In this document: positions 657 to 9,816 of the stretch, piece after piece
Layout: the number at the start of each line of letters is the position of its first letter
How positions within the stretch are numbered: the stretch's first letter is position 1
Source: an uncultured Chloroflexia bacterium
GTDB lineage: Bacteria; Chloroflexota; Limnocylindria; Limnocylindrales; CSP1-4
Direction: 5' to 3'
NCBI GenBank assembly: GCA_963775225.1
Contig: CAVZHW010000002.1
Location: forward strand, 211,909 to 275,908
Length of the DNA: 64,000 nucleotides
The notes under the pieces: model-generated
What the model was told of the DNA's origin: nothing
What the model saw: only the letters and a program-made list of their open reading frames with translations
Database searches by the model: none
Translations under genes and position numbers: made by a program

Positions 657-3158
657 TCAGTGAATGTGGTTCACCGTGCCGGCGACAATCGTGTACTGGA
701 GCGGCGTGGCGTCGCTGAACTTGAAATGCCACTTGCCCGGCAGCAGCTCGATGTCCTGCGTGAAGGTATGCCACGACGTCAGCGAGTACTGCGTCGCGTT
801 GCCGCTGTCGGAGTGCACGGCACCGGTCTGGAAGACCACCGGTGTTGAAACGTCCTGGGTGATCTCCACGGAGCTGTAGTTGTACGTCATCCTGAACTTG
901 TAGCTGCCCGGGAACAGCGCGAAGGTCACGTTGCCGGAGCCATCGGTCGTGCCAACCGGGATCCACGATCCACCGCCCTGCTCGACCACTCCCCCCGAGA
1001 GGCCAGCGCCACTGTGGTCGAGCAGGCTTACGGTCGCGTCGACAGTCGCAAAGGTGAAGATCGAGTGAGTCGGCTGGCTGTCGGTCTGCGTCGCCGAGCC
1101 GTTGTGGTAGTCCACGCGGACCTTGATGCTGCCCAGCGCACCGTCGACCAGCAGATATGCCCGGCCAGTGCCATCGGTAGTGCCGAACGGCAGCCATGAG
1201 CCGCCCGGCGCGTAGTCGATCACGCCACCGGACAGCCCACTGGCAGATGCATCGTCCAGGTGGACGATGACCATGCTCTTGGTGTAGGTCTCGCCCGCGC
1301 CCCACGTGAGCGGTAGCACGTAACCACCATCGGCCGGATCGCGGAAGTGGAAGTTGTAGGTGCCGGCGAGCAGATTCATCGTGGGCTGGGTGAACCAGGC
1401 TGAGTCGCCAGAGCCGCCACCGTACGAGAGCGAGCCGCTGTAGTACAGCGTGACCGTGGCCGTGTTCCAGGTCAGGGTCGTGTCCGCATCTGGGATATCG
1501 ACACTGACTTTAGTCTCAGCGGTGCCCTGGTACTCCATCTCGAACGAGTACGTGCCGGGGAACACTTCGGCAGAACTGGTGCCGTCGACGCCGGTCAGGC
1601 CACCCGGGAACCACCAGCTCGTGTAGGTCGAACCAATGCCGTAGCGCGCGTTCCCGCCGGCCAATGGATCACCACCGGCCGTCTCGAGCGCGAGCGTCAA
1701 CTTCCGCGTCTGGAACTGATAGACGGAGTTCACGCCGGCGTCCTGGGTCACCATCTGGGTCGTCCCGTTGAGCTTCATTTCGTTGGTCACGGTCCCCACG
1801 AGACCCGGCAGATCGTAGGCGAGGATCCCGGGCGCCGATGCCTCATCGCCGGTCGAGCCCGGAGCGAACTGCCAGCTGCCGGCCTGATAGCGTGCCGTCC
1901 CCCCATCGATCGGCACGCCACCACTGTCGACCAGGCGCAGGGCGATGAGGCTGCGCGTGTAGGTCGCACCAGGGCCGGCAGCGACCGGCCAGCCGAGCCC
2001 GATCCGGCCCGATGCCCCACCAGTCCCGTCAAGCCGGAAGCGGACCGGGGTGACACCGTCAGAGAAGAGCTCCATCGAGGGCTTGGAGAACGAGGCTGCA
2101 TCGCCGTTGGGCCCGCCAAAAGCAAGCGGTGCTCTGTACTGCAGCGTGACCCTGGTGGTGTAGAAGTTGAAGGTGGTGTCGGAGGTGACGTGCTCCGTCA
2201 CTTGCTGGCTGAGCGTGTGGTCCTTGCCCACCCAGACCGTTACATCGCCGGCCGGCACCGTGCTTTCTCGACAACCGCTGGCGCCGACCGGCCCCACATA
2301 GTGGCTCGAGCCCTCAGCCCACCAGGCCTGGTCACTGTCCAGCACGATGGGAGCGCCGGTGCTGTCGTACGCGCAGACGGTGATCGTCGGGTCCGTCGGG
2401 GTGCTCCAGGTCCCGGAGCTGGCGGACGCGCCGAGACTCGCGCTCGAACTGAACCAGGCTCCCGACGCGGTGACGGGACCCGGATCCCCGGCCGGCAGCA
2501 GGTTGCCCACCAGCGGGATCCGCAACACGACCTGGCCGACCACGCGCACGTCGTTGGCGCTGAAGTCGTCGCCCACGCTGTTGGCGTCGCCCTTGGTCAC
2601 GAAGGATCCATCGGAGTTGACCGTCGCGACCCGGTGCGTGACGACCGAGTTGTCCACTTCCATCGTCAGGATCATGCCCGGCTCGATCTGATCGGGCGGC
2701 CGGGTGATGACGACCAGGTCGCCGGCGCTGATGGTGGGCGTCATGCTCGCCCCCTTGACCACCAGCACGTGGTACCAGCGGTTGTTGATCAGCCCGTAGG
2801 CCACGAAGACCGCGAACACGACCGCCGCGACCAGGGCGGCGTCAAAGGCAAGGCCGACAATTCGCCTGACCAGGCGCAGTGCCCGGCGGCGTCGTGTCAG
2901 TGGCAGTGGGCGTGGTGCGACAGCCTCGACGGCCGCCTGGCCGCGGACGGGACCGTCTACCTCCGCTGAGCGTTCGGCCGCCGACGCGTCGTCCGGGTTG
3001 GCCGGCGGCTCAGGATCGCTGAGGTGCTGCAGCCGGAAACCGAGTGAGAAGAAGGTTGCCATGACGGTCACGCCGAAGATGAGGCCCGCGGCCTGGCCGA
3101 CAAGGCTCGATCCTCGTCGTGCCAAGCTGGGTTTCAACTTCGACTCCGTTGCCGCCAC
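657..3158 (-). CDS. SipW-like type I signal peptidase (S26, Ser/His type) fused to a C-terminal repeat (beta-sandwich-like) ectodomain of about 600 aa
   Basis: This is the ORF 657..3332, trimmed to GTG at 3158, which is preceded by AGGAGA and a 6-nt spacer. The upstream 58 codons overlap the TasA-like gene in another frame. One TM segment (GLIFGVTVMATFFSLGF) and a second hydrophobic stretch are present. S26 motifs seen: VVKGASMTPTISAGDLVVI, VVTHRV, TKGDAN. After the peptidase core there are repeated modules of the type LxDxxGxGLSGGxxxxxxGSWxPxGTTDGxGxxxxxLxPGxYxFxMxY. Confidence 0.8.
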   Translation of the reverse strand: MAATESKLKPSLARRGSSLVGQAAGLIFGVTVMATFFSLGFRLQHLSDPEPPANPDDASAAERSAEVDGPVRGQAAVEAVAPRPLPLTRRRRALRLVRRIVGLAFDAALVAAVVFAVFVAYGLINNRWYHVLVVKGASMTPTISAGDLVVITRPPDQIEPGMILTMEVDNSVVTHRVATVNSDGSFVTKGDANSVGDDFSANDVRVVGQVVLRIPLVGNLLPAGDPGPVTASGAWFSSSASLGASASSGTWSTPTDPTITVCAYDSTGAPIVLDSDQAWWAEGSSHYVGPVGASGCRESTVPAGDVTVWVGKDHTLSQQVTEHVTSDTTFNFYTTRVTLQYRAPLAFGGPNGDAASFSKPSMELFSDGVTPVRFRLDGTGGASGRIGLGWPVAAGPGATYTRSLIALRLVDSGGVPIDGGTARYQAGSWQFAPGSTGDEASAPGILAYDLPGLVGTVTNEMKLNGTTQMVTQDAGVNSVYQFQTRKLTLALETAGGDPLAGGNARYGIGSTYTSWWFPGGLTGVDGTSSAEVFPGTYSFEMEYQGTAETKVSVDIPDADTTLTWNTATVTLYYSGSLSYGGGSGDSAWFTQPTMNLLAGTYNFHFRDPADGGYVLPLTWGAGETYTKSMVIVHLDDASASGLSGGVIDYAPGGSWLPFGTTDGTGRAYLLVDGALGSIKVRVDYHNGSATQTDSQPTHSIFTFATVDATVSLLDHSGAGLSGGVVEQGGGSWIPVGTTDGSGNVTFALFPGSYKFRMTYNYSSVEITQDVSTPVVFQTGAVHSDSGNATQYSLTSWHTFTQDIELLPGKWHFKFSDATPLQYTIVAGTVNHIH

Positions 3159-3240: not shown

Positions 3241-3813
3241 TTACCAGCCCGGGTTCTCGACCTGTGTCGCGTCGACGTGCAGGTTGAAATTGGCGGTCTG
3301 GTTCTCGTAAGCGTTGGTGGTATTCGAGGCAAGCTCGAAGTACACGTTGTAGCAGGCGGTGTAGTTGATCGGCAGGCCGCCGGCGAACGGACCGGGATTC
3401 TGGGTGTTGGTGAAGCTCAGGCTCGTGAGGGCGGCTTCCTGGATCGAGGGGGTGATCTCAGAACCACCGCAGTAGATCTGGTTCACGCGCACCCTGATCT
3501 TGTTGTAGAAGCCGGTCTGGCTCTCCGAGACGAACTCGTCGGTGACGCGGTACTTGACCGGCACCGTCGAGAGTGCGGTGTTGTAAACCTCGAACTCGTA
3601 CGGGCCGGACCAGACGCCGGGCATCAGGTTACTGACGGTGAAGCTGGTGGGATGCGCCTGGACGTCGATGTTGCCGGACGTGGCGGTGACGGCCACGTGA
3701 TCGGAATCACTGAACCACGCGGCGCTGCCGACGGTACCGAAGGCCATGACCGCGAGCATCGCCAGGGCAAAGGCGGCTACCAAGGTTTTTCGCACAGTTA
3801 CTGTCTCCTTCAT
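3241..3813 (-). CDS. TasA/camelysin-like (M73-like) secreted subunit with a SipW-cognate-type signal peptide, paralog 1
   Basis: This is the ORF 3241..3984, trimmed to ATG at 3813 with a GGGGGGAA Shine-Dalgarno-like tract upstream. The N-terminus is MKETVTVRKTLVAAFALAMLAVMAFGTVGSAAWFSDSD..., a hydrophobic signal ending in the AxF(S/T)D-type motif typical of TasA/camelysin family proteins. It is about 55-60% identical by eye to the ORF at 5159..5725. Confidence 0.8.
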   Translation of the reverse strand: MKETVTVRKTLVAAFALAMLAVMAFGTVGSAAWFSDSDHVAVTATSGNIDVQAHPTSFTVSNLMPGVWSGPYEFEVYNTALSTVPVKYRVTDEFVSESQTGFYNKIRVRVNQIYCGGSEITPSIQEAALTSLSFTNTQNPGPFAGGLPINYTACYNVYFELASNTTNAYENQTANFNLHVDATQVENPGW

Positions 3814-4241
3814 TTCCCCCCGCCGGTGACGGCGGCAGACTGCGAAATACGTGTTTGCGCAGTTGCGCGGAGACGATGGTCCAACGCGCAGCGTCCGGAC
3901 GTCATAGCCCACGAGTCCCATGGGGGGCCCAGGCGATAGTCCCAATTCGTGCGTACTGCCCGCCTTGGCCTCGCCCTTGGGCATCTGTCAGCGGCGCGGG
4001 ACTAGTGCGTTGGTACGTGGCAGCCCAAACGGTCAGCGGGGCGACCGTTCCCAGTCGTCGTGGTTGCGGCGATGAGGTGGGGCTGGGCGACGGTTCACGC
4101 TCGCGAGCAGGCTGCGCCTCGGTCGGCGCCGGTGCGGCGTTGGGGTCGGTGTCGACATGGACGTCGAAGTCGGCAGGACCCGCAGGTGAAGCACCTTGGT
4201 CCTGCTGTCCGGGCCGGCCGCTCCGCCGTGCGTCAGAGACG

Positions 4242-5075
4242 TCAGGGAGCCGGAATCGCGCTCCAGGTCGACCCTTCGGCCGACCCTCCGACGGTCAGCA
4301 GGGCGCTGAACCACGCTCCAGACGCGTGGGCCACGGCCGCATCTCCAGTGGGTAGCAGGTTGCCGATGAGAGGGATGCGAAACAGGTACTGCCCGACCAC
4401 ACCGACCGTGTTTCCGCTGAAGTCGTCGCCCACGGAATTGGCGTCGCCCTTGGTGACGAACGTGCCATCCGGGTTGACCTTCTCAACGCGGTGGGTGACG
4501 ACCGAGTTATCCACTTCCATCGTCAGGATCATGCCTGGCTCGATCTGTGCCGGCGGCGGGGTTATGACGATCAGGTCGCCGGCCGTGATGGTCGGATACA
4601 TGCTCCCGCCCTCGACCACGAGCACGTGGTACCAGCGGTTGTTGACCAGCCCGTAGGCGACGAACACGGCGAGCACGACGGCTGCGATCAGGGCCGTGTC
4701 GAGAGCGACGCCTGCCACCCGCCTAGCCAGCCCGAGGGCTTGTCGGCGGCGTGTCAGCGGCGGCCGGGCGGTAATGGCGGTCTCAGGGGGCGAGTCGATG
4801 ACGACAGGCTCGCCCGCAGCGGGCCGCTCCGCATCGGGCCGCTCCGCATCCGGCTCGTTCGCAGTCGCCTCGTTACCCGCCGGGCCGTCCAATCCGGACT
4901 CGTCAGCCGTGTCTTGCGTGGGCGGGGCGATGGTCACGCGCAGCAAATGGACCACGATGGCGAAGAAGGCGGCAACGACCGCCAGGACGACGATGAGCTC
5001 GACCACCTGACCGGCCGGACTCGCACCAGGCCGCTCGAACGTGGACTTGCGGACCGATTTGTTGGCCGCCATCAC
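4242..5075 (-). CDS. SipW-like type I signal peptidase (S26), short paralog
   Basis: Motifs seen: VVEGGSMYPTITAGDLIVI, VVTHRV, TKGDANS, FRIPLIGNLLP. There is an N-terminal TM (VVELIVVLAVVAAFFAIVV) and a second TM before the catalytic Ser. The start is GTG at 5075 or ATG at 5072, behind GGTGGAGA. The peptidase core is clearly paralogous to that of 657..3158. Confidence 0.85.
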   Translation of the reverse strand: MMAANKSVRKSTFERPGASPAGQVVELIVVLAVVAAFFAIVVHLLRVTIAPPTQDTADESGLDGPAGNEATANEPDAERPDAERPAAGEPVVIDSPPETAITARPPLTRRRQALGLARRVAGVALDTALIAAVVLAVFVAYGLVNNRWYHVLVVEGGSMYPTITAGDLIVITPPPAQIEPGMILTMEVDNSVVTHRVEKVNPDGTFVTKGDANSVGDDFSGNTVGVVGQYLFRIPLIGNLLPTGDAAVAHASGAWFSALLTVGGSAEGSTWSAIPAP

Positions 5076-5158: not shown

Positions 5159-5725
5159 TTACTGAGCCCAGCCCGGGTTCTCGAGCTGAGTCGCGTCGAC
5201 ATCCAAATTGAAGTGAGCGGTCTGGCTCTGGAACGTGTTCGGTGTGGCGTCCAAAAGCTTGAAGTACAGGTTGTAGCACGCGGTGGTGTTGATCGGAAGG
5301 CCCGTCGTGAACAACGTTGGCCCATTCGCGTTGGTGAAGACGAGGTTCTCAAGGAGACCTTGGTAGGTAGCGGGCGTGATTTCTGGACCATTGACGCCGC
5401 AGTACCACTGGTTGACCTTGACCAAGATTTGGTCGTAGAAACCAGCAACGGTCTGCGAGACGAACTCGTCCATCACTCGATACTTCACCGGGACCGTGGA
5501 ATCGGGCTCGTTGTGGATCTGGACCATGTATGCATCCGTCCACACGCCCGGCATCAGGTTGCTGACAGTGAAGTCGGTCGGATCGGCCGTGACATGGACC
5601 TTGCCAGACGTGGCGGTGACGGCCACGGTGTCAGAGCTGGTGAACCATGCGGCGCTGCCAATGGCGCCGTAGGCCATCACCGCGGTCAGGGCAAGAGCAA
5701 AAACGAATACCAGGGGCTTACGCAC
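5159..5725 (-). CDS. TasA/camelysin-like secreted subunit, paralog 2
   Basis: MRKPLVFVFALALTAVMAYGAIGSAAWFTSSDTVAVTATSGKVHV... The start is GTG, preceded by AAGGAG. It shares with paralog 1 the blocks FTVSNLMPGVW, TVPVKYRV.DEFVS, GLPIN.TACYN.YF and DATQ.ENPGW, plus two conserved Cys. Confidence 0.85.
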   Translation of the reverse strand: MRKPLVFVFALALTAVMAYGAIGSAAWFTSSDTVAVTATSGKVHVTADPTDFTVSNLMPGVWTDAYMVQIHNEPDSTVPVKYRVMDEFVSQTVAGFYDQILVKVNQWYCGVNGPEITPATYQGLLENLVFTNANGPTLFTTGLPINTTACYNLYFKLLDATPNTFQSQTAHFNLDVDATQLENPGWAQ

Positions 5726-6114
5726 GATTAGTTACTCCTTGACTTGGCCGCCGGGCACGGCGGCGTGACCGAGACTGCCTGTGCCATCCCGGAGACAGGC
5801 GTCAAGAACGCTAGGCAATAGACCATCCCCTCCCACTGCGAGATCGCGTGCAGCGCTCGTTACGCGGCTGCGCCCGCTGCAGCCTTCCTGTTCTCCCAGG
5901 GCACTCGTCGTGCGGGCCTTCGAGCACCGGTGCCGCGGCCGTTAGTACTAGTCAGGGCCAGTACGAAAGGCATGTGCCGGATGGACCCCGGGGTGGGCCA
6001 AAGGGCCCTCCAGCGCCTTGGGTGGGACGGTCGCTGTCGCGTCTAAACTGCGTTGTTGTGAACGAATCGGGCTCGACGGCAAGGATCGCGGGGGTCGTCG
6101 AACGTGGTGCGCGG

Positions 6115-9816
<3,702 letters not shown>

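Follow-up and report, generated by a model that had tools for sequence, protein, structure and literature searches.

Why would a signal peptidase carry a copy of the site at which its own substrates are cut? This question is raised by a stretch of 64,000 nucleotides from an uncultured Chloroflexia bacterium (contig CAVZHW010000002.1; all positions below are those of this window), whose assembly has a length of 1.44 Mb and is 68% complete. The minus strand of the window holds two tandem cassettes, TasA-like 2 followed by SipW-like 2 and TasA-like 1 followed by SipW-like 1, and each cassette pairs a putative fibre subunit with a SipW-like signal peptidase (Table 1). Shortly after the catalytic core, both peptidases carry the string SGAWFS, which closely resembles the sequence around the predicted signal-peptide cut of the two subunits. 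The closest relatives are uncultured Chloroflexota, with more homologues found in Actinomycetota by a genome-collection scan.

The substrate-like tail of the peptidases

A preliminary description of the locus, made by eye from the sequence, had placed SGAWFS at positions 2448–2465 in peptidase 1 and 4305–4322 in peptidase 2, and translation reproduces both positions. The match between peptidases and subunits is confirmed to be far beyond chance: the pattern [STAG][GAS]AWF[ST] occurs five times in the 2.15 million six-frame open reading frame (ORF) residues of the assembly, and four of these five occurrences fall in the subunits and peptidases of the two cassettes. Two details of the description had to be revised. 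It had put the motif directly after the conserved GNLLP block, but the motif begins 8–9 residues past GNLLP. It had also taken the motif as the end of the subunit signal peptide, but the motif straddles the predicted cut instead. TasA is cleaved at GGGTWA↓AFNDIK and camelysin at GTFA↓FFSDKE (the arrow marks the cut), and from the alignment of F-(S/N)-D with these two sites, we take the cut to be GSAA↓WFSD in the subunits and ASGA↓WFSS in the peptidase tails. Because of this alignment, WFSD is the predicted mature N-terminus and lies outside the signal peptide, and the Ser at −3 and the Ala at −1 of the tail correspond to the canonical signal-peptidase box, both residues of which the real subunits discard with the signal peptide.

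The resemblance between peptidase and subunit exceeds the six residues first noticed and spans −4 to about +19. Over +3 to +19, the tail scores 7.5 with its cognate subunit, compared with −7.8 ± 1.7 with order-shuffled subunits. Furthermore, a hidden Markov model (HMM) of the TasA-like subunits matches the tails of homologous peptidases, namely P0022 (7e-5) and, over about 60 residues, P0096 and P0168. The F at +2, the hydrophobic residue at +12, the G at +15, and the hydrophobic residue at +17 of the tail align to F29, F39, G42, and L44 of TasA, and the mature subunits have this same pattern in common with TasA. The donor strand of TasA comprises residues 28–38, with hydrophobic contacts made by F29, I32, and F39 (PMC9674648). 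The resemblance of the sequence pattern to TasA suggests that the subunits of the window may also form fibres by N-terminal donor-strand exchange. Subunit 1 itself matches PF12389 at 27.1 bits (cut-off 22.5) and TIGR04088 at 20.5 bits (cut-off 19). Subunit 2 has no match of its own in Pfam or the other library; it carries the same motif as subunit 1 and is matched at 2.7e-70 by a local TasA-like HMM that was built from neighboring-gene subunits, its paralogue included.

The stretch between the core and the motif contains no hydrophobic h-region, and the tail forms the C-terminus of the peptidase without any signal peptide of its own. TIGR04088 was not reported on either peptidase in the search with the Pfam and NCBIfam libraries, because this model requires a hydrophobic h-region.

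Both enzymes match TIGR02228, the archaeal/ER-type signal peptidase I of MEROPS family S26B, at 71.8 bits for peptidase 2 and 58.1 bits for peptidase 1 (cut-off 51.85), and the alignment stops at profile positions 134 and 129 of 158, respectively. Their Pfam match is PF00717. The Bacillus SipW equivalog NF046067 gives 31.3 and 39.2 bits, far under its cut-off of 190; judged by sequence, the window enzymes are SipW-like and not SipW orthologues. The residues S157, H194, D210, and D216 (P0001 numbering), in the motifs GGSMxP, VTHR, and GDAN..D, are invariant in 100 aligned tail-bearing homologues. Since the catalytic Ser, His, and Asp are thus retained, the tail-bearing members of the clade look like active enzymes.

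Neither peptidase has the C-terminal transmembrane (TM) helix of SipW and Sec11A, and polar or small residues follow the core. In the sample from this phylum, the majority of the other SipW-like genes encode a hydrophobic C-terminal TM helix at the position of the tail. At the other end of both proteins, an extra hydrophobic helix is followed by an acidic, Pro-rich loop of ~60 amino acids (aa) and then by the usual anchor, an arrangement conserved in both peptidases and in their 5–7 closest relatives; this additional helix may substitute for the absent C-terminal one. The AlphaFold2 model of peptidase 2 has a predicted local distance difference test (pLDDT) score >90 in the core, with helices modeled at residues 19–47 and 106–142. 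A Foldseek search with this model returned human SEC11C/A first, and then LexA, UmuD, and lambda cI and SipA (4n31); entries 7p2q_A, 1jhe_A, and 8gmt_A are among the matches.

Conservation and co-variation in the peptidase clade

The preliminary description had asked whether the motif is conserved in homologous peptidases, and it is, throughout the clade. Most of 40 homologues of the short peptidase 2 show (S/T)-x-A-(W/x)-(F/L) at 6–14 residues past the last core strand, IPxxG, and most of them also have G-x-W about 15 residues beyond the motif. When 1.84 billion representative proteins were searched with a profile, 25,955 members of the family came up, among them 169 clusters at E ≤ 1e-30. 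The pattern [ST]xAx[FLYW] lies within 36 residues past the core in 104 of the 139 homologues that have at least 28 post-core residues, against 5% by chance. The remaining homologues mostly have Ser or Gly at −1, and the residue at −1 is always small. A profile of 111 tails shows W at +1, F at +2, often D at +4, hydrophobic residues at +8, +12, and +14, G at +15, and W at +17, while S251 (−3) and A253 (−1) are invariant or nearly so. Within the subclade of the window, the S, A, W, F, and W of the tail are invariant despite diverging surroundings. A strong full-length match was found in only four of 401 sampled genomes of the phylum, this one included. In a tree of the catalytic core, in which TM and tail forms were sorted by a hydropathy window, all 75 sequences with a tail group together in a single clade (support 0.77) that contains no C-terminal TM helix.

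What follows the tail varies widely across this clade: nothing, linkers rich in Pro and Thr, RTX repeats, immunoglobulin (Ig)-like arrays, CBM96, or a beta-repeat ectodomain of ~575 aa. The long form with the ectodomain, as in peptidase 1, is also present as an orthologue in locus L005. Stand-alone homologues of the ectodomain (~600 aa; P0176, P0179, P0180, and P0187; 65–71% identity) have an ordinary Sec signal peptide immediately before TIAVC..DSTGA and no tail. Because they use Sec signals without the tail, we consider that the tail belongs to the peptidase and that the cargo was appended to it; since the cargo is also highly variable, the tail would behave as a junction or release site to interchangeable cargo. 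The idea that the long cargo is a former SipW substrate was ruled out, as the stand-alone homologues have ordinary Sec signals and lack the motif. The cargo family itself comprises widespread secreted beta-repeat proteins with the motifs DS.G..L.GG.(A/V).Y and G.Y.F.M.Y, and whereas its members in Bacteroidota have C-terminal sorting domains of the type IX secretion system (PF18962), those in Actinomycetota and Chloroflexota have ordinary signal peptides. In another group of the clade, that of P0030, the cargo gives a local hhalign match to TasA-like subunits (96.6%) that covers 29 columns only. Foldseek with the AlphaFold2 model of P0030 returned generic arrestin, CARDB, and Ig-like sandwiches, and TasA was absent from the top 50.

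Does the tail co-vary with the subunit encoded beside it, as the preliminary description proposed to examine? We gathered 24 pairs of a peptidase and its adjacent subunit from genome and metagenome loci. Close loci came from the genome-collection scan (11) and from metagenomes (about 10 useful); the remainder are classical gut SipW-like genes. The pairs fall into two classes. In class I, the subunits read AWF...(S/T)G.(I/L) and the tails AWF...G.W, and in the other class the subunits read A(Q/V/S/F)F...Q.I.VG.F and the tails A(S/I/T/L)F...(Q/M).(I/V).VG.(W/F). The P1′ residue, Trp or non-Trp, separates both classes in tails and subunits alike, and 21 of the 24 pairs agree (counts 15/0/3/6, Fisher p = 6e-4); in the three disagreeing pairs (L050, L051, and L053), the tail has Tyr or Phe against Trp in the subunit. 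Tail and subunit of the own locus are more similar than under permuted pairing (p = 6e-5 over −4 to +19 and 1.8e-4 over +3 to +19). In the locus L006, the two classes are direct neighbors, with one cassette each. Within class I alone, the signal is marginal (p about 0.05–0.07). The proposed co-variation thus holds between the two classes among the 24 pairs and does not hold between duplicated cassettes.

Possible functions of the tail

What is the function of a substrate-like tail on a signal peptidase? The preliminary description had suggested either that the peptidases process themselves or that the segment occupies the active site as a pseudo-substrate. Both ideas require that the active site recognize the tail, and this shared requirement is well supported by the conserved −3/−1 box, the Trp at P1′, and a predicted strand at P4–P2. 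In the AlphaFold2 model of the short peptidase, the tail has pLDDT 57–73, and its sole regular element is a beta bridge at residues 250–252 (P4–P2); in that of P0030, a distant member of the clade, S157–F161 (P3–P2′) forms a five-residue strand with pLDDT about 76. In the 2.6 Å structure of a signal peptide in the human signal peptidase complex (SPC), a beta-type network links the P4–P2 backbone to the c-region groove of Sec11A, and Pro at P1′ blocks signal peptidases (PMC13385932). The P1′ residue of the tail is Trp, as in the substrates, and not the blocking Pro. The −3/−1 box suggests that the active site recognizes the tail, and the box together with the modeled strand suggests that cleavage may expose the N-terminus of the tail. 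As the downstream residues copy +1 to +17 of the subunit, this piece would then act like the N-terminus of a processed subunit. Of the two original suggestions, self-processing is favored over pure pseudo-substrate inhibition on sequence and model evidence, though it is not proven.

We propose, with about even confidence, that the peptidase or its paralogue takes the tail as a substrate and cuts it between Ala and Trp, and that the released piece is a fibre starter or adaptor like TapA, AbpB, or CapP. The motif would be the visible part of a substrate-like module of ~25 residues that ends the catalytic domain, and this module would consist of a cleavage box (Ser or Thr at −3, Ala at −1) and a copy of the ~17 residues with which the mature subunit begins. 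Because it takes the place of the C-terminal membrane helix, the module should lie on the outer face of the membrane beside the active site. There, the peptidase or its paralogue would bind the tail in the substrate groove and cut it, in cis or in trans, giving a fragment whose N-terminus is identical to that of a processed subunit. This N-terminus could enter the groove of a TasA-like subunit as a donor strand, and its insertion would start or cap the fibre and attach the cargo, which is the beta-repeat ectodomain for peptidase 1 and only a 23-residue peptide for peptidase 2. The initiator or adaptor would be exported by fusion to the peptidase and not by a signal peptide of its own. First-strand donors that act after signal-peptidase processing are known or proposed in TapA (PMC10151520, PMC9674648), AbpB (PMC9245690), and CapP (PMC13082335), and CapP of B. 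cereus is processed by SipW (PMC13082335). A separate gene of the TapA, AbpB, or CapP type was not noticed among the ORFs of the cluster, in which no search aimed at one was made.

Several observations weigh against this proposal. The pLDDT of the modeled tails is only 57–76, and the pairing partner of the beta bridge is putative. The residues +3 to +11 of the window tails (e.g., SSSASLGAS) are rich in Ser, Ala, and Gly and do not reach the hydrophobicity of a typical donor strand, and −4/−3-like positions are occupied by Arg, Pro, or Phe in a few tails. For the short paralogue, to release a free peptide of 23 residues would seem a waste. With two membrane helices at the N-terminus, the catalytic domain would come to lie in the cell interior, unless the N-terminus itself faces outward. 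In human SPC, the C-terminal helix of Sec11A binds the h-region and is reported to be necessary for activity (PMC13385932); as this helix is absent from the clade, the activity of its members on ordinary signal peptides is uncertain. In the loci L004, L006, and L054, the cut could be made by a classical SipW-like enzyme that is encoded there as well. Furthermore, between the duplicated cassettes of the window, L004a/b, and L005a/b, own and cross scores are about equal, and the co-variation, though real, is coarse and may have few evolutionary events behind it.

It is possible, but in our judgment rather unlikely, that the tail is a donor strand that stays uncleaved and tethered. It would fill the groove of the first subunit at the site of processing, and the enzyme would serve as both nucleator and membrane anchor, the two roles that are ascribed to TapA with respect to TasA. 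The peptidase homologue SipA of S. pyogenes works in pilus assembly (PMC4049620). The donor-strand-like features, present throughout +1 to +17, agree with a tethered strand, and the tail-only short forms kept in P0002–P0004, P0008, and P0010, which end 6–8 residues past W+17, fit a tether better than a released peptide. However, a tether leaves unexplained the near-invariance of Ser −3 and Ala −1, which are removed from the real subunits, and it does not explain why P1′ has not changed to a non-cleavable residue. Moreover, any bulky cargo following the strand would sit at the membrane.

The conserved −3/−1 box and the beta strand predicted by AlphaFold2 at P4–P2 could also be read as the marks of a pseudo-substrate, which would rest in the c-region groove for zymogen-like control, or would replace the absent helix, and would have no role in the fibre. 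The module lies 6–14 residues past the last core strand, near enough to fold onto the active site. We nevertheless regard such an autoinhibitory tail as decidedly unlikely. Its site is canonical and apparently cleavable, with a small residue at −1 and Trp at +1, unlike those of usual inhibitors, whereas it is Pro at P1′ that blocks signal peptidases. Binding in the groove needs neither the conservation seen at +8 to +17 nor a class-specific match to the subunit, and the variable cargo is left unexplained. That the tail is a relic of an old peptidase–subunit gene fusion, in which the subunit N-terminus survives as a functionless linker, might account for the longer subunit-like sequence in P0096 and P0168, the complete signal peptide in P0161, and the hhalign match of the P0030-group cargo, but it is most improbable, given the free variation of linker and cargo around a motif that is kept in >100 clusters (50% identity), and the invariance of the five residues named above in the subclade of the window.

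Returning to the proposal of a cleaved tail, a broader reading combines it with the tethered form. The peptidase may be a complete one-protein assembly platform, whose tail, either tethered or handed over at cleavage, fills the groove of the subunit that has just been processed; we offer this as a tentative and rather unlikely suggestion. If it is true, a single enzyme would link the removal of signal peptides to nucleation, polarity, and membrane anchoring or the attachment of cargo, and the clade would amount to a functional analogue, in one component, of the chaperone–usher machinery across Chloroflexota, Actinomycetota, and other uncultured lineages.

How does this locus compare with known systems? 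As in the B. subtilis operon tapA–sipW–tasA, a dedicated ER/archaeal-type peptidase adjoins TasA/camelysin-like subunits with a TIGR04088-type signal, the mature N-terminus has the F+2, hydrophobic +12, G+15, and hydrophobic +17 pattern, and the cluster contains an accessory element that resembles a strand donor. Unlike in B. subtilis, the peptidase itself supplies this element as its C-terminal tail, the peptidases are without the C-terminal membrane helix of SipW, and the order is subunit before peptidase in a duplicated cassette. AbpB and CapP, the initiators or adaptors of archaeal bundling pili (AbpA) and B. cereus TasA-like filaments, have the same layout as the tail with its beta-repeat cargo, but they are secreted as separate proteins, each by a signal peptide of its own, whereas the module of the window would be exported as part of the peptidase.

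LexA, UmuD, and lambda cI (S24) and SEC11A/C (S26B) have the same catalytic fold as the window peptidases. The cleavage-site strand of LexA docks in its own active site, and self-cleavage is established for LexA, UmuD, and lambda cI. These proteins use a Ser–Lys dyad and an Ala–Gly site on the N-terminal side of the core, whereas the window enzymes have Ser–His (plus Asp) and a site on the C-terminal side. Unlike them, Sec11A retains the C-terminal helix that binds the h-region. SipA/LepA of S. pyogenes (4n31; PMC4049620) is also a signal-peptidase fold devoted to building a surface fibre; however, it has lost its catalytic residues and serves sortase-built pili, whereas the window enzymes are catalytically intact and are encoded beside TasA-like subunits.

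No fusion of a peptidase with a substrate or with a donor strand was found described in the literature searched, in which TapA, CapP, and AbpB are separate secreted initiators and the C-terminus of SipW is treated only for a regulatory role. To our knowledge, the start, orientation, and attachment of TasA-type fibres are known only in Bacillus (TapA, CapP) and guessed for archaea (AbpB), and we know of no recognizable initiator in most phyla with TasA-like genes. The clade of tail-bearing peptidases is thus a candidate for the initiator that is otherwise unrecognized in most phyla. It would also be an instance of a type I signal peptidase that contains a substrate of its own, and in which the C-terminal helix, reported to be necessary for the activity of human Sec11A, has been replaced. 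For annotation, proteins now labeled just "signal peptidase I" carry tails and cargos (RTX repeats, Ig-like arrays, CBM96, and beta-repeat ectodomains) that would be predicted surface or fibre-tip components.

Layout of the locus and neighboring genes

The features of the two cassettes are collected in Table 1. The spacers between subunit and peptidase genes are ~82 nt, and the subunit and peptidase genes are in different frames.

Table 1. Positions of the two cassettes and their parts in the window (↓, predicted cut).
Feature	Position	Strand	Description	Basis
TasA-like subunit 2	5159–5725	−	188 aa, SipW-type signal peptide	ORF, local HMM
Motif of subunit 2	5636–5659	−	GSAAWFTS, in ...GAIGSAAWFTS	
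Predicted mature start of subunit 2	5591–5647	−	WFTSSDTVAVTATSGKVHV	
SipW-like peptidase 2	4242–5072	−	276 aa; N-terminal helices, catalytic core, substrate-like tail, stop	
Extra N-terminal hydrophobic helix, peptidase 2	4941–5009	−		
RRR and TM anchor, peptidase 2	4647–4751	−	usual anchor before core	
Catalytic Ser, peptidase 2	4593–4610	−	in GGSMYP	
Catalytic His, peptidase 2	4488–4499	−	in VTHR	
GDAN, peptidase 2	4437–4448	−		
IPLIGNLLP, peptidase 2	4350–4376	−		
Motif region, peptidase 2	4293–4328	−	HASGAWFSALLT	translation
Tail, peptidase 2	4245–4325	−	ASGA↓WFSALLTVGGSAEGSTWSAIPAP; box at −4 to −1, donor-strand-like segment, 6 residues, stop	
Donor-strand-like segment, peptidase 2	4263–4313	−	+1 to +17	
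TasA-like subunit 1	3241–3813	−	190 aa	PF12389 and TIGR04088
Motif of subunit 1	3706–3729	−	GSAAWFSD, in ...GTVGSAAWFSD	
Predicted mature start of subunit 1	3661–3717	−	WFSDSDHVAVTATSGNIDV	
SipW-like peptidase 1	657–3158	−	833 aa; N-terminal helices, core, tail, ~575-aa cargo	gene call P0174
Extra N-terminal hydrophobic helix, peptidase 1	3030–3104	−		
RRR and TM anchor, peptidase 1	2790–2894	−	usual anchor before core	
Catalytic Ser, peptidase 1	2736–2753	−	in GASMTP	
Catalytic His, peptidase 1	2631–2642	−	in VTHR	
GDAN, peptidase 1	2580–2591	−		
IPLVGNLLP, peptidase 1	2493–2519	−		
Motif region, peptidase 1	2436–2471	−	TASGAWFSSSAS	translation
Tail, peptidase 1	2388–2468	−	ASGA↓WFSSSASLGASASSGTW STPTDP; junction to cargo	
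Predicted cleavage box, peptidase 1	2445–2468	−		
Donor-strand-like segment, peptidase 1	2406–2456	−		
Cargo of peptidase 1	660–2387	−	repeated beta-rich ectodomain (~575 aa), starts TITVCAYDSTG	

The cassettes are separated by a non-coding gap of 428 nt (3814–4241), which probably holds the promoter of the second cassette; a sigma-70 scan gave no match in this gap. A terminator-like hairpin at 626–643 lies past the long peptidase gene and ahead of the next gene. This next gene, at 2–559 on the minus strand and extending past the edge of the window, encodes a membrane-anchored protein with a Pro/Thr-rich linker and a PKD-like domain, which may be a further surface component of the fibre locus.

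Some homologous loci show unusual arrangements. P0161 (392 aa) has the core and then, in frame, a complete SipW-type signal peptide, KKFWIPALVFLIILIIGRTVGSLALFNSTS, and a TasA-like start; it is either a topologically odd fusion or an artefact of gene calling or a frameshift. In L006 (3855–9029), L054 (5839–9348), and L004 (10402–12036), TasA-like genes and tail-bearing peptidases are accompanied by a SipW-like gene of the classical kind, whose product has a C-terminal TM helix. Frameshifted peptidase or subunit genes are present in L008 (7941–9121), L014 (7968–8441), L049 (7376–7687), and L010 (7046–7787), and these are either pseudogenes or assembly errors in metagenome-assembled genomes. In the window, the ORF at 5848–9816 on the plus strand, divergent from the fibre cluster and outside the present finding, resembles a cobalamin-dependent methionine synthase (metH) and is a candidate for this enzyme by appearance.

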